Counted from the whole stretch's first letter, positions 2,686 to 63,778 are shown. The stretch: DNA of 63,778 nucleotides, filler included, from Reclinomonas americana ATCC 50394 (GCA_048213135.1; 10 parts of 10 records of this genome joined end to end with filler, not necessarily neighbours in it); one strand, 5' to 3'. Numbers and translations: made by a program. Notes: generated from the letters alone by a model not told the origin.

Positions 2686-3769
2686 TCATCTCGGTGTCAA
2701 TCGACCACGCGACGACGACCGAGCAGGCGCCGGTCCGCCGGGCGGCGTCGGCGAGATTCCACCACCACCGATACTGGCACGCGATGCATCGCGAGTGAGT
2801 GGCGGACTGAGTGCCGCAACAGCCGTCGCCGCAGTTGTCGCGTTGATGTTGCCGCGTCGGGTGGCCGCCGGACCTGGTGAGGTGGATCGAGCGCGCAACT
2901 CACGACCTGTTGCGCCAGTGTCAGTAGACGACCGCACTTCTTTTCCTCGACTGTTGATTGACAAGACGCAACGAATGTTGGCCGCGTGTGCCACGGGGTC
3001 GTTGCGCAGCGACGACGCAATCGTCGGCAAATGTGCTCGCGAGGACGGCGGTGAGAGTGACGCGGGAGCGGCACCAGCGCCAGTGATGCTTCCACGAGCA
3101 GCCGGTGGCTGCTTCATGGCCTCCACACGGTCGCGGTGCGACTGCAACAACGACGTGGACGAGCCGGCCGACGGCATGGGCGGGATCTCCGCGTTGCTCT
3201 CGTGGCGCAGTATCTGTGATAAAATGAGCACAAGTAAAAGGATGGCAGTGCGCGAGAGATGAAGACGCAACTCGACTGAGTCGCGGTGCGCTAATGGACT
3301 GCGGACTGCGACGCAAGTCCGGAGACCGCTCACGCGCCGAGATGGAGCCCGTTGCCGATTCCTGCGAATCACGCACAGCGCCGGCACTGTCGCTCCCTTC
3401 GCCGGCGGCGATGGGCGGCAGAGCCACACGAGACGCCGCGCCCACAATCAGACCACGAGGAGATACCGGAGCGGAGATTGAAACCGGTGCGACGCTGCAC
3501 GATTACGGAGGATGATAAGACGAGATGCTGGTTGCGGACATGACACAGGGGAGCGTTCGCACCGTGGGGCATTCAAGTAGGCCGAGCTGATGGCAGTGCC
3601 GTCTTCCGGCAGCGCACTGTCGACACAGGTGAGTGAGGCGGAAACAAGCAACAGCTGCGGACATGAGTGGACTTGAATCTCACCGCAAGTACTCGGCACG
3701 CTCGCGAACCCCAGACAGGTCTGCCTGCGACCCTTGGCCACTGGCACTAAAATGATCGTCCTGCTTCAT
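2686..3769 (-). CDS. Hypothetical Ser/Pro/Arg-rich low-complexity protein, multi-exon
   Basis: Minus-strand ORF pieces (MKQDDHF..., VGAASRVALPP..., ILRHESNAE...RGRLTPR*) join through GT-AG introns. No recognisable domain; start uncertain. Confidence 0.45.
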
Positions 3770-3865
3770 GGAGCAGAAGTGAAGATTAGCAGCGCCTCGA
3801 CGCAAATCACACATGCAGAGCGAATGACACAGCCACAAATGATGACGCAGACACTTGCGCAGAAG

Positions 3866-3965
3866 NNNNNNNNNNNNNNNNNNNNNNNNNNNNNNNNNNN
3901 NNNNNNNNNTTAATTAATTAANNNNNNNNNNNNNNNNNNNNNNNNNNNNNNNNNNNNNNNNNNNN
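3866..3965. other. Assembly gap spacer (N-run + TTAATTAATTAA + N-run); also at 7792, 10555, 23149, 26054, 41363, 56584, 58920, 61532
   Basis: Same 100-nt layout nine times, with an all-frame stop linker. Artificial. Confidence 0.97.
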
Positions 3966-3999
3966 CAGCTCGCACTCGTTCATTGCTCTCGGATCAGAT

Positions 4000-6900
4000 G
4001 GATTGCTGTTGCGTGTCACGCGGGCACACCCATACGTCTCTTCGCTGCCGCGGCTGCGCTCATGTATTATTCCCCCGTCGCGCAGCATGTCGTGGGTGTG
4101 GGAGAGCGAGGGTCTGGCGCTGGACGACGGGCCAAAGCCGGGCACACATCCGGGGCGGTGGACGCTGAAATCCATGCTGCACTGCGTCAACAATCCCGTC
4201 CTGTGCACGGAGCTGTCGCCGAGTGGGAAGCTGGCGGCCATTGGCACGCAGATTGGCACGGTGCAGATTTTCAATTTGGAGATGGGCGATCTGTATCGCG
4301 AATTCAGCCTGTTCCCGGCACCCGTGCGTGGCATTCAGTGGATCAGCGAGGTGCAGCTGGTGGCCTATGGCGCGAAGGAGTTGCGTGGATAAGCTGTCTG
4401 TTTTCAGGGAACGGTCACTCACTTGCTTGACAGAGCCGACGAGCAAGGCACCTTTCGCAATCATCTCGTGCAACTGAACATTCCCTCCGGCAACGTTACC
4501 CCCATGCGCAAAATGTTCGAGGCCGAGACCACATTTATCCGCGGCATTCGCGTCTCCAACTCTACCCGTCTGCTGGCTCTGTTCTTGCGCAATCGGTTAG
4601 TGTGAGAGGGCAGTTTTCGCGCACGCCAGTTCCACGCCACCCACTCACTCACCGCGGTGCCACTCGCTAGCACCACCGAGCTGTGGAGCCTGGAGGCCAA
4701 CAACCTCATCCGCATGGTTCCGGTGCAGGATGTGACGGCGCTCGAGTGGCACCGCATCTCGGCGGAGTTGCCGGGCATGGAGGCCTCGGTGCCGACGGAC
4801 CAGTTGCATGAGGAGTTTGTGTTTGCCACGGCGGATGGTTTGGGAAGGGGAAGGGGGGAGAAGGGGAAGAGAATGAGAGAGAGAGAGAAGAGGGAGACGG
4901 AGAAAGAGAGAGCGCAGGAGTGAGTGATGAGGAGGATGAGGAGAAGGAAAAAAGAAATGTGGAAGGAAGACTAATATCGAGAGAGAGAGAAAGAAAGGGT
5001 GACCCAGATAGAGGTGGAAAGGAGAAGAAAAGGAGAAGGAGAAGAGTGTGAGGAGAAGGTGAAAGAGAAAGAATGAATGAACGAAAGCAAAGACAGAAAG
5101 AAGAAAGAAAGAAGCGGGATGAAAGTAGAAGGAGAAGGAAAGAAAAACGAGAGAGAATGAGAAGGACAAAAGAGAGAAGGAACAAAAGAGGAAAGAGAGC
5201 GAAAAAGACGAGGACAAGCGAAGAAAGATGAAAAAGAAAGAAAGAAAGAAAGAAAGAAGAAAACAAGAGAACGACAAAGAATGAAAGAAAAGGAGAAGAA
5301 GAGAAGGTCAGAGGAAGGGGAGTGACATTTATGTGAGTTGAGAAAATTCTTGGACGCTGTCTCGCTCTCCCTTTGTGTCTCTGGTGTGCGAGGGAGAGAG
5401 ACCCCACTACACCTCATCTCTTATAACACCCTCTGCGCATCAGGCGGCATTCAAATCTACTATGTCGAGTCGAACAATTTTGGTTTGGTGGAGAAGCCGA
5501 CCTCGTCGTCGACCAACCCCATCACCGCCATTGCGTGGAAGGATGACTACTTTGTGACGGGCGACGCCGTCGGCAACATTGTGTGGCGCAACATTCGCAC
5601 CAAGTCGACGAGGTGAGTGCGGCGAGTTTCATTGGGGGCGACAGACGCGCTTTTCTTTATTCACCCTTCTTCCCGCAGAACGGTCAACACACAAAACGGG
5701 CTCATCAAGAAGCTCAGCTTCCCCGAGGCCTCGCACAGCGGCCTGCTGCTGGTGTTGTTTGCCGAGGGTGACTACGGCGTGTGGGACATTGAGGAGGGAG
5801 TTGCGTGCACGTCCATTCAACTCTTTGTCGCCTCCTCCTCCCCCTCATCCATTCCACCGCAGATGTGCATCAGCCACTCGGCGGAGCGCAAGCGCCGGCT
5901 GCAGGCCGTGGATGTGGAGTGGGCGCCCAGCAACATGCTCTTTATCGGTTCGTGTTCTCCGTCTCCGTCTCTTCCCCACTGGGAAACGCTGACTTGCATT
6001 CCTGTTTCCCTCGTCGCAGCTCTCACCTCCGGCTCGCTGGCCGTATACGACCTCAACCTCATCTGCTGCTCCTGCGCCTTTGACGAGTACCTGTTTGCCG
6101 AGCCGTTGCAGAGCCCGGTGCTGCTCAACAACGACGCCGCCATTATGCTCAAGGCCGTGCTCGACCACTCGCTGCCAAAGGACGCCGTCAACTGGGCACA
6201 GCACCCAAAGACCGCGCATTTCAACTTGGACGGCTTTATCGCCTTTGCGGCCAGCAAGCGCTCTCTCACCGACCGCTACCACAGCAACGCGGTGCAGTTT
6301 GCCGACCGTGAAGGTGCGTGCTCAACGAATGCATATGTGGCGTTGGTGGAGCACATGTATAGCCGCCGCACTAGCTCAATTCGGTAGAGCATCAGACTCT
6401 TAATCTGAGGGTTGGGGGTTCGAGTCCCCCGTGCGGCTATCATGACGCCGTCAGGCGGCTATCTTTTTTCTTTTTTTTTCACTTATTTTGATGGGAAGTG
6501 TGTGTGAGTGCCATCATGACACGTGACGAGAGAGGGAAGAAGGTGGCACAATGGGAGAAAAGAAAAAGAAAAAGAATTGGGAAGAGCGAAATTTCATTTG
6601 GCTGATTTTCCTTTTTTTGGACATGCAGGTATCGAATTCTGGCGCCTCGTCCGCATTCACATGTCGCGCCTGCGCGAGGGTGAGCGGGAGACACCGACCT
6701 CACAGCGGCGGCATCAGCACGCCGGAAACCCGCTGCTGTACTCGCCGACTGCGGCCGTGTACAGCACACCAGAGCGGCAGGCGGGATCGGCCATTGCCGC
6801 GGCAGCTGCGGCCGCTGTCAGCGGTGGATCGTCGGTGGCGGCTGCTGCTGGTCCGGAGGTGTCGTTCCGCAGCGATACACCGCCACTGTCGAGCCCGGCC

Positions 6901-7636
6901 TCGCCAAACAGCTTGCTGGGCGACGAAGACGCTGTGCCGAATCAGCGCATTTTGGAGACCGCTGCCGACGAGTTGCGTGCGAGGGAATGATTGTTGTCGT
7001 CCTTGTTGTCGAGCCACTCGCTCGCTCACGCGTCCTTTGCTGCAGCCGAACCATGGTGCCTCCAGAGCTGTACTACGCCATGGACCAGGAGTCGGTGCTG
7101 CGCAACGAATCGATTCGCGTCGCGCGCCGTCGCAACGCGCTGCCCGTGTCGGCCACGGCGTCGCAGTTTGACGAGCAGATTGCGGGGGTGGCGCTGGAGC
7201 ACATTAATGTGCGCGACACGGAGGGTGCGCTGCGCGTGTTCCTCAGCACGCCCACCGAGAGCCCCGAGTATCGCGTCAATGGACTGCAGGCGTGTCTGGC
7301 GGCGGCCGCCAACTCGCCCGAGCATTTCGGGTATGCCATCAAGTTGGTGGCGCGCAACTTGATCGCCGGCGGCAACCTCAATGGCGGTGTCGACCTGCTG
7401 TGCCTCGTCGGGCGGCACGTCGATGCCGTGCGTTACCTGCAGGTGTACGATCGGTGGGAGGAGGCGGCGAGGTTGGCCAAGGTTGGTCAGGGGGGAATAA
7501 GGGGAAAGGGGGAATTAGGGAAGGGGGGAAAGGGAAAAGGGGAAGGGGAGAAAGGGGAAGGGGAAAATGGGAAGGGGGAGTGGTGGTGGACATTGGCTGC
7601 TGGGTGGAAAGGGGTGGGAGAGAGAAAGATAAGAGA

Positions 7637-7697
<61 letters not shown>

Positions 7698-9131: not shown

Positions 9132-11180
9132 TCACTTGTCCTTTGTCGACTCGCTGCTCGGTGCGGTCACCACTGGCTGGCAACCACGCTTGACCCACTC
9201 GTCGACTGCATGGTGGGGTGCGAGTGAGTAATGATCTCCTCGAAGCACAGCTGCACGAAAACGCAACAGCAAGCATCGGTGCCGTACAAAATGTCCCAGA
9301 AACCTGCACGCGACACACGTTCAGCAGCGATACACGCAAGCGACAGAAAGATATCACCAGCGTACGCACGAGTGATGCCACCGTAGCTGCCACTGACTCC
9401 CACGTTGCTCGGGCCACTGCGCAAGACTCATAAAAAATCGATGGCGATTCGACCATACCGCGACAGAGAGAAGAGAAACAAACCCGCACGCCGAATGGTG
9501 GAAGTCGTGATGCAGCGTGGGGCGCAGCCACTGCCACGGCGCAAACGGCAGTGCGTAGCCCGAGTGGCCGTCGATGGTCTCCCAGATGCGCTGCATCAAC
9601 GTGGGTGAGATTGGAGACAAAAGACAGACCCCTCCCCTTGGCCAACGAGACGCAACCAGGAACACCCACAGCCCGAATGTGATGCCGTGGCAGCGCACCA
9701 ACATGGCGCCCGTCAGCACTCCCGGTAGGTTGCCGACCACGGTCTCAAACGGATGCGCATACTCGTACGCCTGCGCAATCGGAACATCAGTGTCGGGGCT
9801 TACAAAATGGCGGCCATATACAATACAAGGTCTCCCCGTCAAACCTCCGCGGAGGTCGCCGTAAACTGATGGTGAATCTTGTGCACGTGGCGATAGAACC
9901 ACGGCGTGTGCAGCAGGCGATGCGTGTGGTAGAAGCAAAAGTCCTCGCACAGCAGGCACACAAAGAGGTGCAGCGGAACCTCGGTCAAAAAGTTCGGCAA
10001 CTCCGCCTCCGTCATGCGATCCAGCGCGCCGCACCAGTCGAACAGCGGGGCCACCAGAAGTGGAGTGGCGACCCATTGGGTGATGAACTGCAAAAGGGAG
10101 AGGGTGGGCAAGGAGAGGGAGGTGGAGAGGGGAGGAGGAGAGGAGATGAGAGGGGACAAGGAAAAGAGAAGAAAGAATGGAGACAACGGAGAAGACGCCA
10201 ACAGAAGAAGACAAGCAACGGCAGACAGAGAACAGGAGAACGAGCAGATGTCGGGAATACAGGAGAGATGGAGAAGGAGAGCTGTGGAGATCACAGGATG
10301 CAAGAGACAGAAGACAAGACCGAGTGACGAGACAAAACGTAAAGCAAGGGAATAGGTGCAGAGAGACCATGGGAACCACAGAGAACGCGAGAGAGAGAGA
10401 GAGATGAGAAGGAGGAGAAGGAGGAGAAGGAGGAGAAGGAGGAGAAGGAGGAGAAGGCGGAGGAGGAGAAGAAGGCGGAGGAGGATGAGGAGGAGGAGAA
10501 GGAAGAGAAGGAGGAGAAAGAGGAGAAGGAGTAGAAAGAGGAGAAGGAGGAGAANNNNNNNNNNNNNNNNNNNNNNNNNNNNNNNNNNNNNNNNNNNNTT
10601 AATTAATTAANNNNNNNNNNNNNNNNNNNNNNNNNNNNNNNNNNNNNNNNNNNNAGAGAGAGAGAGAGAGAGAGAGAAGAGAGAGAGAGGAGGATGAGGA
10701 GGAGGAGAAGGAAGAGAAGGAGGAGAAAGAGGAGAAGGAGTAGAAAGAGGAGAAGGAGGAGAAGGAAGAGAAAGAGAAGGAATAGAACAATCACGAAAGA
10801 AGAAAGATGCAGCACTGCATCACTGATTCATTCCCTTTCCACTCTCCTCCTTCGCCCACCACTCACTCCCTCCCACTCCCTCCACACACCTGATTGACAA
10901 ACTGACCCACAAACGCGCTCCGGCGGACTTGGGCGGGCGGATCGGCGCCGACTCCGCGCGGACGCACACAGCGGTACTTTTCAAACCACTTCCAGCGCCG
11001 CCCGGGGAACTCATACACGAGGAACCACAGCGCAGTGCTGAGCATGTGCGGCACAGCAAAGAGCAGTGTGAGAGCCATTGCCGGGCGCCAGCTGGCGTAG
11101 GCGCCGTCGGAGGTGGGCAAGAGAGGGTTGGCGGGGCTGAGGAACCAGGCCCAGGCGGTGGCGAGAAGGGAGGTGGCCAT
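9132..11180 (-). CDS. Fatty-acid hydroxylase/sterol desaturase family, sterol C4-methyl oxidase (ERG25/MSMO1)-like
   Basis: His boxes FYHTHRLLH, HKIHH, AHPFE, ETIDGHSGY, HHDFHH and FWDILYGTD. Six exons; first intron spans the gap at 10555. Confidence 0.88.
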
Positions 11181-18091: not shown

Positions 18092-20762
18092 TTACACCAG
18101 TTTGTCAAACACCTCGGCCGCACTAATGCCGGTGGCATTCTGCCGCTCCAGCATAATGGTCTCCAGTCGCTCCATGTCGGTGGTAGCGAGTTCGTTGAAT
18201 CGGGCGTCGATAATGACCAGTCGTGGATTGGCCACCACTGAATCCAGGAGCACGCTGCCGGCTGCGGGGAGAAAAAAAGTCATTTTCAAGGGAGGTGTGA
18301 TGAATGGCAGGCAGGTGTCGCACGCAACTCCTGGCATCAATGGCGTTGCAGGAGACGTCGAGCGCGGTCAGCGAGTGGTTCGAGCGCAGCACCTCGGCCA
18401 GCACCAGGGTTGTCTCCACGCCCAGGCCGGTGCCCTCGAGACTCAGCGTCTGCAGCTTGTGGTTGCTCTGCAATGGAGGTAGAGAGTAAGAAAAGGATAA
18501 GAAAAAGGAGAAGGGGGGGGGGGGGTAAGAACGAGGGGGAAGGAACAGGGGGAAGGAAAGGGGGAAGGAAAAGGGGGAAGGAATAGGGGGAAGGGAACAG
18601 AGGGAAGGAACAGGGGAGAAGGAACAGGGGGAAGGAACACGGGGGAAGGAGCAAGGGGAAGAGAGGAGTGGGGAAGGAGAACGGAAGACCGAGGGGAAAG
18701 GAACAGAGAGGAAGGGGGAAAGGGGGAAGGAACAGGGGGAAGGAACAGCTGGAAAGAAGAACTCTTTCCCCCACCCTGTCCATAGCCTGTCCCTCTCTGT
18801 TCCCCCCATATTTTTCCCCTTGAACTCCTGTCTCCCATGTCCATTCGTCCCTTTCCTGTCTCTCTCCTTGGAAAAAAGTAAAACACGATGGCGCCGACAG
18901 AATCCTTCTGTTCGCCTCCACCCCCATCCCCTTTCTATCACCCACCTTCAACCCATTGACCACATGCAGTGCACCCTCCTCATGCAGCCGGTTGAGACGC
19001 AGCGAGAGACTCTCCAACGTGCTATTCTCCGCAATGGCACGACCCAAATGCTTGCTGCCAGATTTCCCAAAGGCGTTGTCGAACAGATTGAGATGTCTCA
19101 GGTGGCACTTGGCCGGCTGTCGCAACAGCGACGACAGTGCCTTGGCGCCGTCGTCTCCAATCTTATTGTGCGACAAGTCTACCAAGAGGTGTCAGCATGC
19201 GCACAAACTCCCCTTTGCTCATCTCCTACTTCTCCCCCACACTCACCCAACAACGTCACGCTGCTGTTCTTCACCAGGCCCGACAGGATGGCGCGCAGCT
19301 TCAAATCGTCAATCATGTTCTCGCACAGCTTGAGCTCGCGCAGCGTGTTGTTGGAGGAGAGCACGGCGGCGAGATGCAGACAGTCCTGATTGTTGAGGCC
19401 AATGCCGCTCAACGAAAAGTCGGTGCCATACGACTGCGCGCCGTAGGTGACAGAGACGCGCTCCAGTCGCGGCAGGCAGTGGAAGACGAGTCGAATGTCG
19501 AGGTGTGACTTGAGCTGGCGGCACGTGAGGTTGGTCACAATGCCGGCGGCCAGTTCACAGTTTGCCCGGAAGCGATCCACGAAATCCGTCGCCACTTCGC
19601 CGCTCTGCTCCAAAAAGTCCTGCAGGTGCTTCTCCAGGTACAGCTGGCGGGGGGGCGAAGAATGAGATGGGGACAGAGGGGAAAGGGGGTGGAATGGAGA
19701 GGGATGCACACCTTCTTCCAGTGGGTGGTCGGCGGCAACTGTCCCGACGGCCATCGACTCTCACAGCACCGCTTCCAGTACCGCTCGTCGGAGATGCGTA
19801 CGACTGTCAGCACCAGTGGCAAGTCCTGCTCAACACAGGAGGGTAAGAGGGAGGGCGTCCGACAGGAAAATTGTGATGCTGCGCAACTGTGGACAAGTGC
19901 TCCGTGACCATCGCCGCACACTCCTCCGGCAAGTCGGCCAGCGTCGGCTGCTGTAGGAAGCTGGCGGCAATACTCTTGGCGCACAGCAGCAGCAGCGGCG
20001 GCACAAAGTACGACGCGGTGCCGTTTCGTCGGTATGCGTTGGGCGCCAGTGCACGCTGCAGCTCTTGCTCTTGCTGCGAGGGATGAGGGGGGTGAGGGGG
20101 GTGCAAAACAAAGGGGAGATGGAGGGAGATAAAGAATGCACCTTTACAAACTGGTACATGAGCTTGACCTCGGATTGTGAGAGCTTGGCAGCCAGTGCCG
20201 CCTGCTGCTCGTTGAATCTCCTCGACTGTGGGGGTGTGCGGAGAAAGTGAGCAGCGGCAAGGATGCGAAAAAGGAAAGCGACGGCTGTTCCACTCAACGT
20301 CACTGCGCAGCTCGCTGTGCTTCTTTCGCACATCGCGGAGAGGGTTGGAGATCTCGTGTGGTTCCTCGACGAACCAGTCCTCGGCGTTGCCGGCGGGGCC
20401 ACCGACGCCGGCGCTGCTGAGGCGGCCGCGGGTTTCTGGGAAGGGGGGTGAGGCGAAGGAGGAGAAGGAGGGAGAGGGGCACGGCAAAGGAAGGGAGAGA
20501 CACTCTCCACTGTGCTGAAGGCGACAGACACCGTGCAACACTCCGTCACCACAAATGTGATGGTCTCAGATCATGCAACGACACAAGGGCACACAAGGAG
20601 CGCTTGCCACTGGTCTGCTGCTCGATTCCATAGATCTCTCCAGACAAACGTAGAACGTGGCACATTTCCTTGACCGTGGACCAAACACTCACCAGGCAAC
20701 AATGGCTCCGGCACCGGCGGCAACGGCGAGCCCGCCTCCGGCAACACTGCATCCTCACTCAT
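18092..20762 (-). CDS. TCTE1: Dynein regulatory complex subunit 5 (TCTE1), LRR protein
   Basis: VPPLLLLC, DLPL..ISDERYWKRCCESRW, WKKLYLEKHLQ, LTCRQLKSHLD, then LRRs (DLSHNKIGDDGAKAL, LSLRLNRL, LDVSCNAI). 5' exons approximate. Confidence 0.85.
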
Positions 20763-22228: not shown

Positions 22229-25200
22229 TCACTCACGCACTCTCTTGTCGCTGTTCGCACATTCACTCTCTTCTCTCACTCTCTTCTCTCTCTCTCTCTT
22301 ATTCTCTCTCTCTCGTGCACACTCTCTTCCGCACACTCCCGTTCGCCTCACACATTGCGCGTTCTTCATTGTGTTAGTCATCGGATTTGTTCTCTCACGC
22401 ACACGCACGCTCTCTCTCTCTCTCTTTGCCTTGCCGCTCGCATCTCCCACTCTGCCGCTCACTCTTTTTCTTCACGGTTGACATCAATATCGCATGTGAT
22501 GATGTTCGTTTGCGACTGCTGCACTCGCATCTCTCTCTGTGCCTCCGTCTCTCATTCTCCGTTGACCTGCGCTCCCTCTCTTGCTCATGCGCATCCATTC
22601 TTCACCATTTTCGTCTCGTCATCAAAATGTATCGTCATTTCCGTCGGGTGGCTTTGCGTTGCGGCTGCGTTCTGTCTCTCTCCTCGTCGCTCGTCTCTTC
22701 CTTTTCGTGCATTCTCTTGGATGGCACTCGCTGCGAATCTTGCCGCGCGAGTTACCATGCATGACCGGCTTTTCGGACTTTTGCACGCTCTTGCCCTGCG
22801 TTCTCTCTGTCTCTTCTCCTTCCCTCCCCTTGCATCTCTCATCGCTTTCTCGCAGTTCTTCTCTGCGTTCCCCTCGTCTCATCAACTCTATCGATTTCGT
22901 GTTCGATTGCCGATCGGTCACTCTCTCCTTATCTCTTTCCTTCCTTTCTCACTCGCGCTCTCGCTTGCCATCCTATTCTCTCTCTGCCTCACTCACACAC
23001 ACGCTCTCGCTACTCGTCTCGTCATTGTCTCACTCGCCGCGTTCTTCTGCATCTCCCACCCTCTCTCACACAATTGTCACTCCTCACCCGCTTTCTCTCT
23101 CCCTCTCCTTCTCTCTCCTTCCCTACCCTCCCGCCCTTCCCCCTTCCGNNNNNNNNNNNNNNNNNNNNNNNNNNNNNNNNNNNNNNNNNNNNTTAATTAA
23201 TTAANNNNNNNNNNNNNNNNNNNNNNNNNNNNNNNNNNNNNNNNNNNNCCCCTCCCCCCTTCCCTCCCTCCCTCTCTCTTATCTCCTTCTCATCCCTTCC
23301 GCCTCCCCCAGATCCGACGCGGCCCCCCTGTGACAAGCTTCCCCGGCTCATCACCACCACACCACCACCACCAGACCCCCTCAGCCAATGGCTCAATGTC
23401 GCCCACGGACCTGGACGACGGGATGATTGAGCGATTCGGGGCCACACCGGCATCGCGCGTGCAGCAGACCGAGACGCGGAGAGTGACGGAGCGCGTCACG
23501 CAGCTGACGAGTGGGTCGGCGGCCGGAGCCAGTCACCATCACTCGCAAGAGTCAGCCGTGTCGGCCAGCTCGGTGGTCTCGCGAGTGTCATCAAAGAGTT
23601 GCGTCGCTGACAAGAGAGAGGTGCACGAAAACCTCAAGCCCTCATTTTGGCCGCTGCAGGTGGAGCATCGGTGGGAGTGGGTGCGGGCGGCGGTGCGACA
23701 CACGATTCGGTGGACGCAATACGGCAGGAGATGAATGGCGGTCGGGACGGCTCGTTGAAGCTGGAGGTGGTGGCGAAAGTGAGACCAATCGACGATTTCG
23801 AGATTGAGGAGGGTGCAAGAAAGTTGCGTCTCCCGCTCCGTGACTCGATCGTTGCGCGAGTCTGACTGTGCGTGGGCGAAGGATTCTGGCGGCGTATGGC
23901 AACAAGGTCAGGTTGCGCGGCCCCGATGACGTGCTGCGGAACTTTGAATACGATGGCGTGTACGACAAGTTGCGGAGGCGAACGCGAAGACGCAGGACAA
24001 TTATTCTTGTGTTCTCATCATGTTCTTGTTTCACACAGCGTGTCGGAGAGTGAATTCTACGAGGCGGCCGTGAGGCCCACAATAGCGGACTTTTTGAAGG
24101 GCATCAATGTCTGTGTTGTGTCTTTTGGGCAGACCGGAAGCGGCAAGTCGTACACGCTACGCGGCAGCTCGACGTCCACTGGTGTGATTTCGCAGTCGCT
24201 GAGGAGTATCTTTGATCATTTGACGACACTGCGAGATGTGAGTGTGGGCGATGGTGTAGAGTGGAGATTTGAGGTGTTCCCCTCCGCTTCCCCCGTTCGC
24301 TTCCTTCTTTCGCATTCGTGCATCCTTTTGCTTGCGTGCTCTCGCTCGTGCGCTTTCGCTTCCACTCCTCCTTTTCTGTGCTCGCCCTTCGCTTCCCCCC
24401 TTGCTTCCTCCTTAGCTTCCTCTTTGCTCCCCTTCGTTTCTCTTTGCTCCCCTTCGTTTCTCTTTGCTCCCCTTCGTTTCTCTTTGCTCCCCTCTTCTCC
24501 TCCCACTTCTCTCCCACCATTCTCTCCCACCATTCTCTCCCCCATTAATATTCTCTTCCCCTTTCTCTTCCCCTTTGCTTCCCCCCTTTGCTTCCCCCCT
24601 TTGCTTCCCCCCTTTGCTTCCCCCTTTCACTTCCCCCTTCGTCTTCCCCCTTCGTCTTCCCCCTTCCCTTTTCCTCACTCTTCGCCACCTTTGCAGCCAC
24701 CACACGTCGTCGTCTCGTGCGTGGAGTTGCACAAGGAGGAGGTTCACGACTTGTTGAGCGACGAGGACATTACCCCACCATTATCGATCATCGAATCACG
24801 GACAACCTCCGACATTGTCATTGAGGTACGTTTCTCCCTCTCTCCAATTGTCAAGCCTCTCTTGTGCCCAACCCTTTCCTCCTGCAGGGCGCGGTGGAAT
24901 TGCAAATCGGCTCAGTCGAGGACGGCGTGAGGCTACTACACCAGGCCACGCACAAGCAGAGAGCACACGCATCGCACTTTATCTACCGAGTCACGCTCGT
25001 TCACAACCGGGGTGGCAGTTGCGCGCGCTGTGCTCGCCGTGGCCCTCTCGCCGCCTTTTCCTCACCCTTCTTTTGTCCCCGCAGAGTGGGCCTGCTACTT
25101 CTTCGACCTGATGGGCCACCAAAAGGCGCGGCAATCGGGTGCCGGACTCAACGAGGGCATGGCGATCAATCACTCACTGTCGGCTGTTATGTCGGTGGTG

Positions 25201-25476
25201 GAATCGATTGTCATGCGCAACAGCGGCGCCGTGACGGCATTCAGGGACTCTGTGCTGACATTTTTGATGCGCCACGCTCTGTTGGCGATTGGTCATTGGC
25301 ACGTGTTGTGGGTGCTGCACGCGAGTCCATCCAGCGAGGACTTTGCGGAGACGAAGAACACACTACAGTTGCGTGTACGAAGCAGAAGTGCAGGTGACAT
25401 GTTGGTGGTTTACTGATTGTGTGTGGCGCGCAGAAACGGAGTCACGATTCAAAAGATGAATGGCGTCGTCAAGTGA
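21552..25476 (+). CDS. Kinesin-like motor protein with low-complexity N-terminal extension (spans gap 23149)
   Basis: VVAKVRP, FEYDGVY, GINVCVVSFGQTGSGKSYTL, SCVELHKEEVHDLL, DLMGHQK (divergent DLAGSE), INHSLSA, FRDSVLTFLM, ETKNTLQ. Confidence 0.85.
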
Positions 25477-45180: not shown

Positions 45181-46127
45181 ATGGAGTCTGAGTTGGTCGC
45201 CCATCTGCTTGATCCGTGGCTCCTCTTCCCGTTTGTGGGACTGGGCCTGGCACTGGCTATTTCCCGTCGCCACCCCGACTCGGCGCCCCTGTCGCGCACC
45301 GATACGTGGATCGCCAACTGGGCGCTCATCAACGGCATCATCATTCACGGCTTCCTCGATGGGTGAGTGCGTGTGTGCGTGCGTGTGTGTGTGTTTGCTG
45401 ACATGTTCCGACTTTGGCACGCGCGCGCATGCAGTGTCATTGGTCTGCTTGGCCAGATTCCCCTGCTGGCGCGTGAGTATGAGCGCCTTGACAAGCGCTA
45501 CTCGTCTGGCGAGCCGAATGTTGCGTGCGTGTGTGCAAGTTTGTTTTTCCCATGCATTTTCTGTCTGATACATGCAACCAGGTGATGCACATTTCTGCGC
45601 TGGAGCTGCTGGTGTACATGCCACTGTGCGTGTGGTGGTATCGTGCGATCATGAAGCAGCAGCCGATTCGTCACGCGCTCAACTTGGTGGTGTCGAGCAT
45701 TCAGATTTACGGTGCTTGCATGTCAGCGATGAGTGGTTGGGCTTCATGTTTTATCGCACTCATGCACGCATTCTCCATGGATGCAGGCACCGTCATCTTT
45801 GCCGGTGTGGAGACGTATCGCGGCTTCCCCAACATCCCGTGGGACCCGGAGAACCCCTTCTCCGGCTCCACCCTCTTCTACTTCTGGCTGTTCTTCGTGG
45901 TGGCCAACCCGATCTGGTGAGCGCATGCTGTGCTGTGTGCTGCGTGCTGCATGCACACACGCATAACTGACTCGCCGTTGTGCAGGATCATTGTGCCGTT
46001 CCTGTGCATCCTGGACGCCTGGAAGGGCATCCACGTGCTGGGCGCCGCCGCCGCCAGCTCCATCAAGACCAAGACCAGCAACGGTGGTGCCGTCGCCGGC
46101 AAGGTCGAGGCCAAGAAGGATAAGTGA
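45181..46127 (+). CDS. EXPERA family (emopamil-binding protein-like) membrane protein
   Basis: NGIIIHGFLDG, EYERLDKRY, SSIQIYGTVIF, FYFWLFFVVANPIWIIVP, C-terminal KKDK. Confidence 0.85.
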
Positions 46128-46179: not shown

Positions 46180-49146
46180 TCACAAGAGTAGGCGAATGAA
46201 CAAGACGCGACGCTCGCACACCGGCAAGATGACCACGCGCGGTGCAACGTCCTCCAGCAGCACAAACATGGCCTGCGCACAGTGCATCCACAAGTCGTCT
46301 GCGTCGGCTTCGAGTGCCGCAACGAGGGAAGCTGCCACGAGCATCAAGCGTCGGTGGAGCAGGCGTCTGCCGTGCGCGAGTCGATGAATGTGCGGCGCCG
46401 TCACCAACACGCTACACCATATGTGTGCAATGATCCGCCGACACAACTCGCGCTCTGTGTGCACGCGTGCGTAAGTAACAGAGGCTTTCCAACAGCGTGT
46501 CTCCGACACACCTCGACCCGATTGCAGCAAGTCGATCTCCAGCCACGACAAGCTCTGCGGCACGGCCGCGACAGAGCGCAGTCGCTCGCTCAGCTGCGCA
46601 AGCTCGACAACTGTACAGTCTGCGACAAGGGCATCCAGCTGCTCAAGCAGACTGGCTGGAAGAATGCCGATCTGCAATGGTTCATGAGCTCGGGTCGCAA
46701 CAGGCGAAACACGTCGGTCATGTGACACACCAACAGCGGCCTGATGCTTGGCGCATCGGTGCCGGTCTTCACGGAGCACAGTGCAACAGCCACGTCTCCT
46801 ACGCTCATCCGCGACTGTTGTGTGCCACCGGAATGGGCCACCAGTAGTTTCCACAGCGCACTGCGTGGCACACAATGAGAAATCAAGGGCAGTAGTACTA
46901 CTTGTTGGTGCCAGCTCGCACCGCAACGCCGACGCCGTGCGCTGTTTCTCCTCTGCCTCACGACGGGCTTCTGCTTGCCGTCGATTTCGGTGGTACTCCT
47001 CCAACAGCCACCCTGCCGAACCTGGACACGAAGAATGGCGTCAGGCATGTGCATGTACTTCGGAAAATAATATCGATACGAACCGTTCTTCTCTTTCGTT
47101 GACTCGAGTTGCTGCTCCATCTCGCGATCGGCGGTGCGACACAGCATGGCCAGTCGATTTAGTCGGTGAAACCACTGGATCGCAGACGGCAATGAGAATC
47201 GGAGTAGTGAAGCATTTCAGTGACTGGCACGCACAGATCGATGGCGAGCATGGCGACGGATCGCACGGCGGATGCGAGAGACGTGACTCCACACAATCAA
47301 CAACGACGATGATGGTGGTAGATCGTGGTGCGGAACCACGTTCATCGACACGGGTTCTGACCTGCATATGCGATCAGTGACATGCCTTGTCAGCAGAGAA
47401 GAAGAGAGGCGGCTTTGCTCACCACCACGAATCGAGGGACTGACGGAAGCGATTCGTCAGTGCGGCCCTCCACTGACCGACAATTGAGACATCCATGCGA
47501 ATTGTTGTCGTCGAGCTGCATCGAGCGAAGAGCCGTTCCACCACACACAAATCGTGCTCTCCGACAGTAGCGGCAGCAGCAGTGATCGCCGGCCGTCGCG
47601 CATATTCCTGCCCGCTGTCCATCGCCGATGTGGCACGCCACATGCACTCGAGTGCCTGCGTGAACCACACAGTTGACGAGCGACCTCGTCGAACACTGCA
47701 TGTCGATGGCCAAGTCAGTGGGGGACGGGAGCATCCATCATCAGTCAACAGCAACAACGCACTTGGCAAACTGCACGAGGTTGGCAAGTGCCGCGTCCAC
47801 TGCCGTCTGCAAATGTCGTTGAAAACAATCAAAGCCGCCTGCATGCCACCACATGAACACAATGAAGAAAAGCGAACATCTGCCGCACAGCGCACCAATC
47901 TCTTCCAGAGCAATGTAGAGCGCGGCCAGTGGAGCACACACATGATGTTGCAAGTCGACCACAGAGATGCGTTGCAGACGCAGCAAGTGGCTGCATTGAT
48001 GTGGATGAGTGCGCATCGTGGCTGAAGACGAGCGGACACAATCGCTAACCTGAGAAAGTGCCGCCCTGTCGCATCGTCAGCTGCATGACGCTCGGCATAC
48101 TTGGACGCCCATGGTCGCAACCACGCCAGAGATTCGACTGCCTCTGTCACGGCATGCGCGCTGGTGTCGACTGCCAGCGACTCGAGACATGCCAGCAGAT
48201 TTGCCGACCATCCACTGGTTTCATCGATAGAAGCCGGCACCTCAAACATCTGCGCTTTCGATGCCGTGGCCCGTCGACCAACCACCGTGAGACCGGCGGC
48301 CAGACCAGCTCGCAGGCGCTCTGCATCCTTCCATCCACCCTCGTGCAGCGCCTCCACCACCGCCGACAATGGCACCGCCTGCGGACACAGTGCATGCACC
48401 TCCTGACGGTTTGCCGATCAGAACACATCATCGCCAGCGGAAGAGAGAGAGAGACAGAGCGCAACTCGAAAGCACTGCAGCTGCTCCTGCGTCTCATCCA
48501 CTCGCAACAGGAACTGGGTCGGCGCTTGCGGCTGGCGACGCACCACGCCGGCTTTGCCAACACCCGCCAGACCCAGCGACCGACGCTGCGGAACAAAGTG
48601 AGTTGCAAGCTCAACACTGGCAAGCCCTGCAGCGTACCATGGCCAACGATGGTGCCGCAGCTCGCAGCTGAGCCTCGGTCTCGCGAATCATGCCCTCGAC
48701 ATCGCCCAGCGACACGCCAGCCAACGCACGAGTGCGCTGCTCACTGCTGGACGGATCAAAGCGCGTAAACGTCTGCTCTCTGTGCAGCCTGCCGGGTCAA
48801 TCATCGAAGCAACCAACCGTCGAAAGAAGAAGACGCAACGATCGCCGACTGGCCTCGCGCACCACTGCAAACAGCACCTCTGGCAACACTTGCAGCCAGC
48901 ATGCTGTCTCCCACAAGGGCGACGACGATGCCGACAAGTGCATGAACGGGAAGAACAGGATCATCAGTGCCTCCGATGCCTCTTCTGCCTCCTGTGCGCA
49001 TGCATGAGAGAGAGACTGAGAGAGTGGGAGAAGGGGATAGAAGCAACGAACCAGCCATCCACGACGCATGCGCAGTGCTCGACATGTGGAGCACAACTCC
49101 TCTGCCCATGATACCACAGGCACAGGAGCACCATCGCCCATGTCAC
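46180..49146 (-). CDS. Large multi-exon hypothetical protein (boundaries approximate)
   Basis: Successive helical-looking minus-strand ORF segments with plausible GT-AG introns. No family recognised. Confidence 0.4.
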
Positions 49147-49249: not shown

Positions 49250-50073
49250 ATGAGCGTGTCATATGAGGAGTTTGATGCGTTTGTGACGCGCTACTGGTCG
49301 GCGCTGCTGGTCGCCTCCGCAGTGCTCTTCTTCTTGTGCAGCTGGCTCTTTGGCAAGTTCAAGGCGATGCTCTATCGCTTGCGTTCCACACGTTGCGTTA
49401 CTCTCTCTCTCTCTCTCTCTCTGTGACTTCTGTGTGTGCTTCTCTCTCTCACGCATGCACACACGCACGCAGGCTTTGATCGCAACGACCGCCGTGTCAA
49501 GGCCATCTTTGAGCAAAAGCGCGAGCGGCAGCTGGAAGAGGAGGAGGAGCGAGTGCGAGAGCGCTTGCGACAGCAGCAGGAGCGACAGGAGGCCATGAGG
49601 TCGGCCTTTCTCTTCTCTTTCTCTCTCACGCATTCCCTTCGGCATTGACCCTCACTTCTTGCCACAGACAACAGGCAGTGGAGCGCGCCATTCCCAACGT
49701 ACTGCAGGCGCAACAGCGGCGGAGAAGGCTCGGCGGTGGGGCCACAGAGCGAGTTGCGTGCAGTGTGCTGATTCTCTGTCTTTCGTTGTGGAAAGTGATT
49801 GTTCACGCGCCGCTGACAACGCAGCCGCCACGTGTCGAGAGACGCGACGGCGAGAACGACAGTGAGAGTGGCAGTGGCAGTGAGCGCGACGAGTCGCCTC
49901 CGCCACGAGCGCCCGCTCCGCCTCCGGTGTCACGGCCGCCGAACCCCTTCTCCTCGTCGTCCTCCAGCAACAGCCGGGCTTACAACCCGCTGGATGGCGG
50001 TGGCGGATTCCGCACGTACAGGCCCACTCGCCGCTACGGCAATGGTCGGTGCGGTCCGTCTGGATGAGGTTAA
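49250..50073 (+). CDS. SELENOS: Selenoprotein S (VIMP) with penultimate selenocysteine (TGA 50065-50067)
   Basis: N-terminal TM, coiled coil, then YNPLDGGGG..YRPTRR...SG-TGA-GGT-TAA, matching the SelS C-terminus (YNPL.G.GGG...G-U-G). SECIS downstream. Confidence 0.88.
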
Positions 50074-50251: not shown

Positions 50252-51479
50252 CTATCGTTTACTCCTCACTGGCGGCGGTGCGGTAATGTCGAACGGCTCG
50301 TCATCCGTCTTTGTGATAATATCTAACTCGTCGTCATCGCCACCGTCGCCGTCGTCGGCTTCGGCATCGGGTGCGGAGCCCATCACCGGCACCTGCTTCT
50401 CTCGTAGCATCTGAACAATGGCAGCACGCAAGTCCGCGATACCCGCACTTCGCTTGCTGCTGGTGACAATGAGCAGAGGCACAAACAGTCCCGCCTCGCC
50501 ATATCTCAACAAGGCCTGCACACCATTGTGGTGTAAGCACACCGTCGGCAATCGCCACAAACGAGAAACGCAACTGACTGCATCACGGTGTTGGCCACGG
50601 CAGATAGTTGCGCATCGTTGACACAGTCGGCCTTGGTGAGCACGACCTGGAACGGTCGAGAGCACGACACGAGGAAGTCCATGAACTCCAAGTCGGCCGG
50701 CATGAGATCGCCTCGTCGACTGTCGATGAGAATCAACACGCGCTTCAGACTGCAAGAGACGAGGAGAGAAGACGGTGGGTGAGAACACCAAGCATGCACA
50801 CGCACACACTCCCCTCTCCTGCATCCAACCTTCTCGACGTGGTCATGCTGTGGTGAATCAGGTCGTGGAAACGCTCGGTGGCCTGTCGCGGAGCATCAGC
50901 GTGCCCGTACCCCGGCAGATCCAACAGCAGCACCTTGCCCGCCATTTGCGCATTGCGGATGCCGTAGTAGTTTAGCGTTTGCGTACGACCCTGTGTACGT
51001 TCACTGAGTCCAGCACGCAACGCGAACAAGAGAGGCGAGGAAGCCACCGACCGGCGTCTTGGAAATCTTTACGAGCGCCTTTTGGTTGACCAGCGCATTG
51101 ATGAGCGACGACTTGCCGACATTGGAGCGGCCGGCAAAGGCCACCGTGGGTATCTGTCGCTCGTTGAGTCGCTCGGCCTCGTGCACGCTGTACAGCAGAT
51201 CGAAATCCTGCGAAAACATGACCCTGATCCTCAGTGAGATCCTCAGCGATCAGATGGTGTGTATCAAGAAGCAAAAGAACACGCGCACCTCGCCACGCGA
51301 TGCTGCGCAGCGTTGGGCAGTGGCAAGCGGAAAGGATTGACAAATGCATGCTGGCGACCTGTGCAGGAGAAAGATCAGCGGCTCATCTCCACTGGCGATG
51401 CTCTCTGTGCGTGCTTATCACCAGTGGCAGATGTGGAGAAGAGGCGATGCACGCAGAGGCCTCGTCGCAGAGCTTGCAT
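50252..51479 (-). CDS. EngB/YihA-family GTPase (GTPBP8-like), likely organelle-targeted
   Basis: [47 protein letters not shown]-terminus [18 protein letters not shown] resembles a presequence. Confidence 0.92.
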
Positions 51480-56287: not shown

Positions 56288-56683
56288 TAGATAATTCCGT
56301 ACCTCTAGAGACACACACGCGCGGTTCTCTCCTGCGTATAGCCAGAAAAACCACACACATACGACGCATGACGCGAAGAAAAAACACTTGTACATCACAC
56401 ACCTCCACAAGTAGGTTTCAAATATATTCTTTTCTGCCGCGGCACGGCAAAAATAACACACCAGAGAGAGGGGGAGGGGGGGTTTAGGGTTCTTATTGCA
56501 CTCGCTACTTTTTCGCTAATTGCAGCCCACGGTCGTTGGAACTGCGTCACTATTTTGCTGCTGCGGAGGCACTGCCGCCGGCCNNNNNNNNNNNNNNNNN
56601 NNNNNNNNNNNNNNNNNNNNNNNNNNNTTAATTAATTAANNNNNNNNNNNNNNNNNNNNNNNNNNNNNNNNNNNNNNNNNNNN

Positions 56684-58919: not shown

Positions 58920-59144
58920 NNNNNNNNNNNNNNNNNNNNNNNNNNNNNNNNNNNNNNNNNNNNTTAATTAATTAANNNNNNNNNNNNNNNNNNNNNNNNN
59001 NNNNNNNNNNNNNNNNNNNAGTACCGCCGCCGATAGCTGAAGCACCTCCCAATCTAAAAATGACCCTCATACCGATGGTAATGTGTCTGTCGCGTGGCAC
59101 GTATTTGTATGTCGCTGCATCTCACACGCGCGTCACAAAAAAAG

Positions 59145-60954: not shown

Positions 60955-61003
60955 TCGCGGCAATGGCCGCTTACACGTAATTGAAAACACCATAATTTAC
61001 CAC

Positions 61004-61531
61004 TCATCGTACAGGCTCGCGAATGAACAACGATCCGTAGAGCTCGATCTGTGACAGATGCAGCTCTAGACGGCCCGCGAGTGCCGACTGTATGAGCGAC
61101 ACTCGGAAGCGACGGAATGCACGCGTAGTGTCCACAGGAAATGTTACAAAGGTTCCTGCAAGGAGTGTTGGTCATCCGCAACACAAGGAAAAGAGTGCAT
61201 GCATACGTACCCGCAGGTCCACTCAGCGACGGATCTTGCACGTGCGACGACAATGTGACCCATTCTTTGCCGTCATCGGAGCCCTCGAATCTCCACGACC
61301 GCATGTAGTTGTCTGCGACACAGGGGATGATGAGCATAGCCTCGGAAGCCTTTTTGGCCAAAATAATAACAGGTGCAGCGCGTACCGGTGGTGCCGTCTT
61401 GCCGCAAAGTATACCCGGTGCAGATGAGTGAATGGTCGTCGAGCAGGTCGACCCGCACCCACTGCTCGCGACGGCCTTCGGTGAACCACGTACTCAGATA
61501 CGCGCGGTCCACGAGTCGCTCCGGTCTGTGC
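61004..61531 (-). CDS. F5/8 type C (galactose-binding-like) domain protein, C-terminal part
   Basis: WVRVDL, GYTLRQDG, MRSWRFEGSDDGKEWVTL, FRRFRV, LHLSQIELYG. Confidence 0.78.
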
Positions 61532-61631
61532 NNNNNNNNNNNNNNNNNNNNNNNNNNNNNNNNNNNNNNNNNNNNTTAATTAATTAANNNNNNNNNNNNN
61601 NNNNNNNNNNNNNNNNNNNNNNNNNNNNNNN

Positions 61632-62056
61632 TTCCGTTCGAGTGTGGGATGTGCAATCTGGGGGAACTGTGGCACGAGTGTGTTGTACAACATCAAAAGA
61701 CTTCGAGAAGCCCACTGCCGCGGTGATGTTGAACGACGGGCGGGTTGTGATTGTCGCCTACAGATTTTCTGGCCTTTCAGTGTGGCCTGTTGGTGCGTGG
61801 TCTCTTGGCTGAGTTTGCTTCCCGCTACTGACAAACATTGGCTGTTGGTGGTGATCACACAGGGTCAACGTTGGGCGGGTGGTACATTGGCCGGGAGTAT
61901 GAGTGCATCAGGAGAGCCTTGAAAGCACTGTCGAGAGATGAGGATGAGGAGGGTGACGACGAGGGAGAGCCACTTCCCCACTTTGTTCTACGTTGTTTCC
62001 TTGCTGAGGAAGCAGAGATGCTGTGCTTCCGATATGCCTCGGCCAGTCAATGGTGA
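61632..62056 (+). CDS. 3' end of WD40 family paralog with SOCS-box-like tail
   Basis: LQIFWPF, intron, then GWYIGREYECIRRALKAL...EGEPLPHFVLRCFLAEEAEMLCFRY. Confidence 0.65.
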
Positions 62057-63778
62057 CGTGAATGCAAAGAGAATTGCTCCGAACCGTCGTGTTTCTTGAT
62101 CCAGGCCACTTGACAGTTTCCCACATCAGTGCTTAAGTTCTAGGTTGCATAGACTCGGTCTGCCACATCAAGCTTCAGAGAGTTGAGGCTTGTCATGCCG
62201 ATTTGTTGTCCCATGAAAACACACACGCACAGACTTCCGTATGACGAGCGATGACCACGAGTTCACGGACATTACGCAGCCCCTCGAAGCGCACGACTTT
62301 GGCGAGCACATCTATTATGCGGCAGTATCGGCCGATGTGCATCCGTCCATCGTTGCGCGTCTTGTAAAGAATGCACGAATCAACATTTTGGCATGTTCAT
62401 TAATCATGCCTCCCTCAGCATTCGCAGCTACTGGCTGTGACGAAGGGGAGCACTGTTCAACTCTACGACACCCACCGCCGACATGGATCGCTGCACTTGT
62501 TGTCCACTGTGCAAGTGACAAGGGTCGGTTGCTCCGTGTTGCGGCTGCTCTTTTGCTCCGACGACGGCCGATGGCTCGTGTGTGGTGCCGGTATTGGAGA
62601 CTATGGGGTGAGCATGTGGGACCTTGAGTCGCCGTTGGAACCGCGGCTCGTGTGGTGTGCCACGGAACACGGCTTGCACGTGCTTGCACTTGCTGCGTCT
62701 TCCGAGTACATATTCTCCGGTAGCGCCGACAACTCGGTCAAGGCGATCAACAGGCAGATGGGAGTGTGTGTGGCCGATATGCGACACAAACACAGCGTGC
62801 GCTCGGTGCAGGTGACGGCAGACGAGCGGCTAGTGATCAGTGCCGCGTTCGACAAGCAAGTGATTGTGTGGGATCACGACACGCACGATTGTTTGTCACG
62901 CGTTGAGCTGGCGGAAGACATCTGGTCCATGGTTCTGTTGGCGAACAGTGAGGTGCTTTTCTGCGGACTGCGGAATGGCAAGATTGTGCAGTGTGCATTG
63001 CAGCGTGACGGCGATAGGAATGCAGTTACTGTCGCACAGACGACAGAAGAGTGGTCTGGTCATCAACAAGAAGTGGTGCATCTGCTGCTGCTGGCGAATG
63101 GCCACCACCTCATCAGCACATCCAAAGGTGCGTGCGTGTGCATGTGCAAGGAGTACGAATGAAATAATCACGTGCACTACTCACCGCAATTGAACACAGA
63201 TCATTCAGCTCGAGTGTGGCATGTGCGGACTGGGAGAACAGTGGCACGAGTGCTTCGCATCGATATGGGTGAGATGCAGACCACCGCCACGGTGATGCTG
63301 GAGGATGGACGGGCGGTAATGACAGCCTACAGCCGTGTTGGTCTCTCTGTGTGGCGTCTTGGTGTGTGGGTCATTCACTGTTGTGCATGTACAAGAGCGC
63401 TGCGATCACTGACACCAAGATGCAGGGGTGTCAATGGGTGGGTGGCTGATGGGCCAGGAGTACGAGTGCATCAGAAGAGCCCTGCAAGCACTGTCGAGGG
63501 ATGAGGACGAAGATGAGGGAGCTGGGGATTACGGAGAGTCTCTTCCCCACTTTGTTCTACGTTGTTTCCTTGCCGAGGAAGCAGAGATGCTGTGCTTCCG
63601 ATGCCTCGGCCAGTCAATGGTGACGTGAATGCAAAGAGAATTGCTCCGAACCGTCGTGCTTCTTGATCCAGACCACTTGACAGTTTCCCACATCAGTGCT
63701 TAAGTTCTAGGTTGCATAGACTCGTTCGTCCACATCTAAGTAGCTTCGGAGAGTTGCAGCTTGTCATGCCGAGCTCGA
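61876..63778 (+). repeat. Direct duplication of last exon plus 3' flank (about 61876-62200 vs 63440-63778)
   Basis: Near-identical blocks, e.g. CTTCCCCACTTTGTTCTACGTTGTTTCCTTGC and GTGACGTGAATGCAAAGAGAATTGCTCCGAACCGTCGTG; period about 1.57 kb. Confidence 0.92.
62241..63628 (+). CDS. WD40 repeat protein with SOCS-box-like tail
   Basis: SGSADNSVKA, SAAFDKQVIVWD, GHQQEV...STSKDHSARVW; last exon GWLMGQEYECIRRALQAL...LPHFVLRCFLAEE. Confidence 0.85.

Follow-up and report, generated by a model that had tools for sequence, protein, structure and literature searches.

The 63,778-base stretch of DNA analysed here (the window; 57% GC) is a gene-dense eukaryotic region, and the subject of this report is a large class of its introns, whose 5' splice sites (donors) begin with GTTGCG or a close variant. 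Pfam matches on open-frame pieces reveal a kinesin-like motor, Vps18, WDR11, TMEM260, an APT1-like hydrolase, a fatty-acid hydroxylase, a mitochondrial carrier and an EngB-like GTPase, as well as GAF, PAS, LRR, WD40 and NACHT proteins. The introns are short (median about 67 nucleotides, nt), end in CAG and have a CTSAY branch motif about 18 nt before the 3' end. Introns with a GTTGCG-type donor, in which G stands at +6, are referred to as class B, and introns with a GTNNGT-type donor, in which G stands at +5, as ordinary.

An initial annotation of the window had listed 39 class-B donors, and every one of them begins with the motif assigned to it on the strand assigned to it: GTTGCG at 35 sites, GTTGAG at two, and GTTTCG and GTTTTG at one each, with GCTTCG at none of the 39. 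Position +6 is G throughout, and +7 is T at 33 sites, C at four and G at two. Both strands together hold 96 copies of GTTGCG, more than chance would produce, as base composition predicts 38 and a Markov model 69.

GTAAGT is the universal optimum for the canonical U1 small nuclear RNA (snRNA). In the window as a whole it is depleted (5 copies, 21.7 expected), and GTGCGT and GTTGCG are each over-represented about 2.5-fold, the favoured core being GCGU and not AAGU.

The association of the motif with intron 3' ends was scored by means of a 3' module, defined as a CTSAY branch motif followed by a first AG that is YAG, 45-130 nt after the candidate donor. The module was found behind 26 of the 35 GTTGCGT copies and 48 of the 96 GTTGCG copies, with a background of 25 of 144 for GTTGC followed by A, C or T, and 2167 of 8104 (27%) for GTNNNN (Fisher p = 6e-9). 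With an earlier, stricter version of the module, GTTGCG was the most enriched of all GT-hexamers. Strand bias was assessed in 27.2 kb of gene spans, the orientation of which was taken from Pfam matches alone. GTTGCGT occurs there 17 times in sense (14 with module) and once in antisense (without module; p = 1.4e-4), and GTGCGT 36 times in sense (21 with module) and 9 times in antisense (2 with module). Control hexamers differing by one base were unbiased (sense/antisense: GTTGCC 10/12, GTTGCT 12/12, GTTGCA 7/6, GTTGGC 10/11). The hexamer excess, the coupling to the 3' module and the Pfam-oriented strand bias are all independent of gene models. In DNA this rich in GC, the length of open reading frames is by itself no guide; in a frame test based on codon statistics, 19 of the 31 listed sites with a nearby module had consistent flanks, where one third would be expected (p = 0.0013).

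Boundaries were checked by comparing trimmed exons with Pfam profiles and by local alignment to fetched homologues. Nine class-B introns are backed by both frame and homology, namely five in the kinesin-like gene, two in the APT1-like gene, and one each in the WDR11-like and mitochondrial carrier genes. Eight of the nine had been listed before, and the ninth, at 25018, is new. The kinesin-like gene, built by hand, comprises eight exons from an ATG at 23396 to a stop at 25476 (+) and encodes 401 amino acids. It has seven introns, two of them ordinary and five class B (23598, 23823, 23969, 25018 and 25368), and the complete 401-residue frame requires all five class-B introns. The introns concerned are as follows (exon base -1 in lower case, slash at the predicted cut).

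23598..23659 (+): class-B intron 1 of the kinesin-like gene, a/GTTGCGT, 62 nt; needed for the 401-residue frame and recovered by the final gene model
23823..23881 (AAG acceptor, 59 nt) or 23823..23911 (CAG acceptor, 89 nt) (+): class-B intron 2 of the kinesin-like gene; both in frame
23969..24038 (+): class-B intron 3 of the kinesin-like gene, a/GTTGCGG, 70 nt; alignment to kinesin P0048 ungapped; no GT at +6
24238..24696 (+): ordinary GTGAGT intron of the kinesin-like gene, 459 nt, CT-rich
24826..24887 (+): ordinary intron of the kinesin-like gene, g/GTACGT
25018..25084 (+): class-B intron of the kinesin-like gene outside the initial list, a/GTTGCGC, 67 nt; alignment to P0048 ungapped
25368..25433 (+): last class-B intron of the kinesin-like gene; in frame to the stop at 25476; three-residue gap against P0048 at the junction
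27810..27864 (-): class-B intron of the APT1-like hydrolase gene, c/GTTGCGT, 55 nt; Pfam profile exactly continuous
28401..28456 (-): class-B intron of the APT1-like gene, c/GTTGCGT; acceptor 53, 56 or 59 nt downstream, all in frame
4380..4433 (+): class-B intron of the WDR11-like gene, a/GTTGCGT to CAG, 54 nt; profile continuous within one residue
52896..52967 (+): class-B intron of the mitochondrial carrier gene, t/GTTGCGT, 72 nt; the exon before it matches Mito_carr 3-83 of 96

The kinesin-like protein aligns with kinesin P0048 (blastp E = 2e-27) without any gap across the 23969 and 25018 junctions. Removal of the 23823 intron joins the ..VAKVRP.. exon in frame to the ..FEYDGVYD.. exon, the exon after the 23969 intron begins at about position 53 of the Pfam Kinesin profile, and the 25018 junction leads from ..VHNRGG[K] to WACYFFDLMG.., the following exon matching from about position 225. 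In the APT1-like gene, exon 27867-27971 corresponds to Abhydrolase_2 129-165, codon 166 is split by the 27864 intron, and exon 27638-27808 corresponds to 167-215 (junction peptide ..LLCHGN[A]DEMVP..). The flanks of the 28456 intron match Abhydrolase_2 10-25 and 29-60, residue 1 of the second exon falls at about 26, and the profile is continuous within one residue (..LHGLGD[T]..). At 4380 the flanks match the second propeller of Pfam WDR11 at 32-79 (exon end at about 81) and 85-135 (exon start at about 84), the class-B junction being one among four in-frame GT-AG options, and at 52896 the junction peptide is ..GITIAA[Y]EAFKR... For six homology-anchored junctions, every stop-free GT..AG pair joining both frames was listed. 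Each junction had 3-7 alternatives, and a GTTGCG donor with a CAG acceptor was present at all six; the class-B donor was the only donor type that recurred across the junctions, the other options being unrelated GT sites. Strand bias, coupling to the 3' module, and frame and homology at the nine introns thus bear out the proposal that the listed donors are real intron starts. Judged from the sequence, the GTTGCGT sites are true 5' ends of introns.

Two further features of the kinesin-like gene were observed. The 459-nt intron at 24238-24696 is open in frame and mimics coding sequence for tools based on open reading frames. The switch-II region of the protein (..FFDLMGHQ..) is divergent and identity to the best relative is no more than 26%, so that the motor may be non-canonical or inactive; a homologue search with the C-terminal piece of the protein gave no match.

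To estimate the size of the class, a first gene finder was run in which GTNNGT donors and donors of the form GTT, G or T, then C, A or T, then G were favoured equally, and exon bases were unscored. It returned 73 high-confidence short introns, of which 44 were ordinary, 20 class B and 9 other. When the matrices were learned in a second round, the numbers were 62 ordinary, 48 class B and 35 other introns of 45-150 nt. Class B would accordingly make up about 27-33% of short introns, a range to be taken as an estimate because both rounds favoured the motif, which counts against the reading developed below. Without any gene model, the sense copies with a 3' module in the 27.2 kb number 20 for GTTGCG, 21 for GTGCGT, 11 for GTGAGT and 6 for GTACGT. 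Since GTTGCG is as frequent as the top ordinary hexamer, class B is co-dominant, and its initial description as a "second" class was not borne out, while that of a large intron class with G at +6 instead of +5 was.

The 3' halves of the two classes look alike. Among the 48 class-B introns of the model the acceptor is CAG in 46, TAG in one and AAG in one, and neither acceptor nor GC content differs from ordinary introns. A CTSAY-type branch motif was found in 41 of the 48 class-B and 47 of the 62 ordinary introns, with C at its third position in 24 of 41 and 27 of 47, respectively. The median distance from branch motif to 3' end is 17 nt in class B and 19 nt in ordinary introns, and the median intron length 66.5 and 68 nt. 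Both classes occur within the same genes. Intron interiors share 8-mers in 28 of 1128 class-B pairs (2.5%), 64 of 1891 ordinary pairs (3.4%) and 103 of 2976 pairs between classes (3.5%). Together, the shared 3' features, the shared genes and the unrelated interiors argue against a separate spliceosome and against introner elements. With GT and AG ends, a branch motif, and restoration of frame and homology upon removal, the GTTGCGT introns are, by these marks, major-type GT-AG introns dependent on a branch site.

The exon side of the donor sets the classes apart. At the 39 listed sites exon base -1 is A at 23, C at eight, T at five and G at three, and since the three G are all preceded by T, AG never stands directly before the cut. 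In the output of the first gene finder, G occupies -1 in one of 20 class-B introns compared to 27 of 44 ordinary ones. These counts agree with the initial annotation, both in the A-rich, G-poor -1 position of class B and in the predominance of G at -1 of ordinary donors, and they fit its suggestion that A(-1)G(+1) takes the usual AG(-2,-1) slots.

The word following the cut is rigid. The inserted base is T, as GTAGCGT has no sense copy and only one of six sense copies of GTGGCGT is followed by the module. The claim that every ordinary donor recurs moved by one base was not confirmed, because only the GCGT core is used in this way: none of the ten GTTGAGT copies is in sense, GTTGTGT has three sense copies without module, and GTTACGT is absent. 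GTCGCGT, with six sense copies (four with 3' module) and two antisense copies, may be a minor variant of class B; donors of the form GTCGCG(T), with C as the inserted base, were seen at 57054 and 13274 (-).

A separate set of 35 predicted introns lacks G+5/T+6 (GTTGGA, GTTTGG, GTGAGC and others). Almost all of them follow exon AG, with G at -1 in 31 of the 35, a pattern of exon/intron compensation; the figure is inflated because exon bases were scored in the model.

In the mechanism that we propose, the ordinary donor word would be AG/GUGCGU and the class-B word A/GUUGCGU, the third base being the sole difference. Cleavage would occur just before the first GU of the word, so that the distance from the cut to the GCGU core would be one base longer in class B, and when U6 replaces U1 the extra U at +3 would be accommodated as an unpaired base. 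With one position already mismatched, the rest of the word would need to be near perfect, which would account for the rigid GCGT core, the T at +7 and the A at -1. A bulged register predicts G at -1, and the scarcity of G there favours the shifted register, which was also the optimum when the canonical U1 5' end (from PMC4856993) was paired with the class-B consensus in RNAduplex. Our judgement is evenly poised on whether class B is a co-dominant donor class whose AG(G/U)UGCGU word is read, presumably by the U1 5' end, in a +1 shifted register.

Several observations weigh against this reading. The shifted duplex with canonical U1 reaches only -1.9 kcal/mol, compared to -8.6 kcal/mol for GTGCGT, and so weak a duplex sits badly with the use of class B by at least a quarter of the introns. 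The shifted register tolerates a G.U wobble at -1 and on its own gives no reason for the scarcity of G. Ordinary donors have G at -2 in 12 of 44 cases, and the -2 base of class B (G 14, A 11, C 9, T 5) shows no echo of a -3 preference. Several additional class-B introns longer than 200 nt in the model are probably false. Finally, the statistics from which we infer the reading RNA and the register cover fewer than 60 sites, all within a single window of 64 kb. The combination of a weak duplex, a rigid word and a scarce G(-1) keeps a tuned or second U1 in play. A more comprehensive formulation, which we regard as tentative and on balance unlikely, is that a single major spliceosome serves two co-dominant donor codes, with the rigid AGUUGCGU word in a quarter to a third of the introns, with either a dedicated, co-evolved U1 paralogue or a single U1 bound to use two registers as its reader, and with U6 and the catalytic core tolerating the extra U at +3 as the norm.

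The strongest rival explanation is a variant snRNA, i.e. a second U1 gene or a re-tuned single U1 with a 5' end fully complementary to AGUUGCGU. It would suit a consensus whose 7-8 bases are held rigidly, with T(+7) at 33 and A(-1) at 23 of the 39 sites, and which lacks the +4/+5 variation of ordinary donors, as well as the weak binding to be expected of canonical U1. The available parts of Roy and Bowser (10.1101/2022.06.08.495308) describe precedents in the co-evolved U1 5' ends of Entamoeba and Mastigamoeba. On the other hand, the U1 of Thecamonas and Mamiellales is reported in the same parts to be standard although +4 is C, and the 3' halves of the two intron classes in the window are indistinguishable. 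We consider a variant snRNA doubtful, though to be taken seriously.

The same U1 could instead keep to its canonical register and accommodate the extra U at +2/+3 as a bulge. The motif does equal GTGCGT plus one T, bulge registers at +2/+3 have been proven in human cells (PMC4856993, in the parts available), and a bulge is required at the U6 stage in any case. However, exon base -1 would then stay paired to C9 of U1, and G(-1) should be at least as common as at ordinary donors (27 of 44), whereas it was found in one of 20 model introns and at three of 39 listed sites. This makes a bulged U1 pairing rather improbable.

It is also very unlikely that the boundaries are misplaced, with the true donor at the GT of +6/+7 (GTTGC/GTNNNN) or at another nearby GT, and GTTGC exonic. 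A second GT does exist at the 33 sites with T at +7. At 4380, 27864 and 52896 there is an in-frame alternative with an AG 2-5 nt further downstream, and at 4380 alone it would fill the Pfam profile one residue better and may be the true donor. In contrast, 23969 and 25018 have no GT at +6, 28456 offers no in-frame join, and at 27864 the alternative adds a residue to an exactly continuous profile. Moreover, no donor consensus follows the second GT, and it is implausible that unrelated proteins would share a conserved exonic GTTGC.

A rigid 5' signal of 7-8 bases is reminiscent of U12-type introns, which have an RTATCCTT donor and a TCCTTRAY branch site near the 3' end. That class B is spliced by a divergent minor-type (U12-like) spliceosome, distinct from the major one and with a rigid 5' signal of its own, seems just as remote as misplaced boundaries, however, as GTTGCGT is unlike RTATCCTT, and branch motif, branch distance, CAG acceptor and length are the same as in ordinary introns. 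Least credible is that class B consists of copies of a mobile element (an introner) bringing its own GTTGCGT end, which would explain an abundant class of uniform length with a fixed 5' end but not interiors that are no more alike than those of ordinary introns or of pairs between the classes.

Beyond the nine introns described above, class-B introns are predicted from gene models only. The final models use 34 of the 39 listed sites and leave out 16413, 21972, 51549, 31157 and 32773; no 3' module was found near 16413 and 21972, and the 3' end of the intron at 34874 is uncertain. The introns predicted in this way are given below.

3214..3271 (-): class-B intron, NACHT-gene region; also supported by a 3' module
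5800..5862 (+): class-B intron, WDR11-like gene, 63 nt, a multiple of three and stop-free; frame-consistent by codon statistics
6972..7045 (+): class-B intron, WDR11-like gene
9591..9656 (-): class-B intron, fatty-acid-hydroxylase-family gene; phase-0 junction ..GLWVFL/RIWETIDGHSGY..
9206..9267 (-): class-B intron, fatty-acid-hydroxylase-family gene
18262..18328 (-): class-B intron, LRR gene
19826..19887 (-): class-B intron, LRR gene
27297..27355 (+): class-B intron, BTB-domain gene
29266..29332 (+): variant donor, a/GTTTCGT
32266..32329, 32377..32442 and 33274..33339 (-): class-B introns, channel-like gene
33441..33513, 33744..33817 and 34052..34131 (-): class-B introns, channel-like gene
35189..35270 (+): class-B intron, TAG acceptor
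36301..36372 (+): variant donor, a/GTTGAGT
37587..37650 (-): class-B intron, Vps18-like gene
41577..41639 (-): variant donor, a/GTTTTGT, N-terminal part of the Vps18-like gene
41748..41822 (-): class-B intron, N-terminal part of the Vps18-like gene
45520..45581 (+): class-B intron, EBP/EXPERA gene
49392..49472 (+): class-B intron
49753..49824 (+): class-B intron
50516..50574 (-): class-B intron, EngB-like GTPase gene; in-frame alternative GTTTGT at 50562, 47 nt
62352..62418 (+): class-B intron, WD40 gene
2907..2972 (-) and 4008..4085 (+): class-B candidates outside the initial list
48789..48839 (-) and 46861..46927 (-): class-B candidates outside the initial list

Some introns, that at 5800-5862 among them, are a multiple of three in length and contain no stops, and their retention would go unnoticed in the predicted protein. 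The channel-like gene (30609-34585, -) holds eight of the listed class-B sites. It is a multi-exon membrane protein gene with, by eye, a polycystin/mucolipin-type look, and its pore exon has two weak relatives among 1.84 billion representative proteins. Of the two exons around 50574 in the EngB-like gene, the upstream one aligns to EngB structures and the downstream one has no PDB match. The short exons of the fatty-acid hydroxylase, the N-terminal part of Vps18 and the middle part of WDR11 have no Pfam match individually. The TMEM260 gene is without a class-B intron; one of its exons has 45 relatives, all at 40% identity or less and the best-scoring at 34-35%. For the window proteins in general, close relatives were not found in the collections searched, and a metagenome scan was likewise without a relative.

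No gene for U1, U6, U5 or any other snRNA was found within the window by Rfam, either at gathering thresholds or at E <= 1, the output being a single tRNA plus low-complexity look-alikes. This tRNA-Lys (anticodon CTT) lies at 6365-6438 (+) inside the WDR11-like gene span, apparently in one of its introns. The window also contains nine identical 100-base spacers, N44-TTAATTAATTAA-N44, at the following positions.

3866-3965: spacer 1
7792-7891: spacer 2
10555-10654: spacer 3
23149-23248: spacer 4
26054-26153: spacer 5
41363-41462: spacer 6
56584-56683: spacer 7
58920-59019: spacer 8
61532-61631: spacer 9

The spacers mostly adjoin CT/GA-rich low-complexity DNA. They behave as scaffold or assembly gaps in that genes run on through them, e.g. 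the Vps18-like gene over 41363-41462.

The practical consequence of a class-B donor code concerns gene finding. A single position-weight matrix for donors would score class B poorly, and when gene finding was run without donor information or with a self-trained single donor matrix, the class-B sites were missed and the outcome was noisy or drifted to GTGTGT repeats. As single-matrix runs miss class B, a large proportion of the genes in automatic annotations of this genome are likely to contain frame errors and retained introns. In humans, registers that are shifted or bulged are known from a small minority of 5' splice sites and have been proven one site at a time; +1 shifted sites in particular are rare in humans. 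If true, the reading proposed here would offer a natural system for three questions: the way in which U1, U6 and the catalytic core set the cut where pairing and the GU do not coincide, the possible co-evolution of snRNAs with donor codes, and the route by which a second code comes to pervade a genome.

The closest known parallel is the +1 shifted U1 register of Roca and Krainer (2009), as cited in the available parts of Tan et al. (2016, PMC4856993), on which the following comparison draws. The human +1 shifted sites resemble class B in having GU at +1/+2, the conserved G at +6 instead of +5 and U at +7 instead of +6, and in filling the A(-2)G(-1) slots with exon A(-1) and intron G(+1). A test oligonucleotide of Tan et al. 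(PMC4856993) has an exon ending in ..ACA, an intron starting with GU, and the AAGU core one base late. Class B differs from these sites in its abundance, at the estimated 27-33% of short introns, and in its GCGU rather than AAGU core. Sites with a bulge at +2/+3, e.g. human GUUAAGU (Roca et al. 2012, cited in the same parts of PMC4856993), share with class B one extra U behind GU and an otherwise consensus core. They favour a paired exon G(-1), however, whereas class B is depleted of G(-1) and in this respect does not behave as a bulge class.

Lineage-specific donor codes are a second parallel. In the available parts of Roy and Bowser (10.1101/2022.06.08.495308), the U1 5' end is AACAAAC in Entamoeba, matching GUUUGUU, and ACGUAC in Mastigamoeba, where the preferred donor is GUGCGC. 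These Archamoebae resemble class B in that their donor is lineage-specific, rigid and extended, has U at +3 and shows a preference at +7, and they demonstrate that the U1 5' end can change to fit the donor. Entamoeba, in contrast, has one donor type (GUUUGUU) with G at +5, whereas two registers are found here within the same genes. The ordinary class of the window, GTGCGT(G) with CTSAY branch sites, resembles the signals of Ostreococcus and other Mamiellales, with their atypical GTGCGTG donors (Irimia and Roy 2008, PMC2483917, in the available parts), and of Thecamonas, with C at +4 (10.1101/2022.06.08.495308). The available parts of PMC2483917 and 10.1101/2022.06.08.495308 make no mention of a GTTGCGT class; the genome here is intron-rich, with short introns. 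Nothing relevant on GTTGCG, GUUGCG or GTTGCGT as a splice signal appeared among the literature matches listed, which leave subscription journals largely uncovered, and the LDA splice-site paper PMC11310860 contained nothing on GTTGCGT donors. Shifted and bulged donors as such are already known, and it is their use as a co-dominant, rigid donor code that is probably new to the literature.

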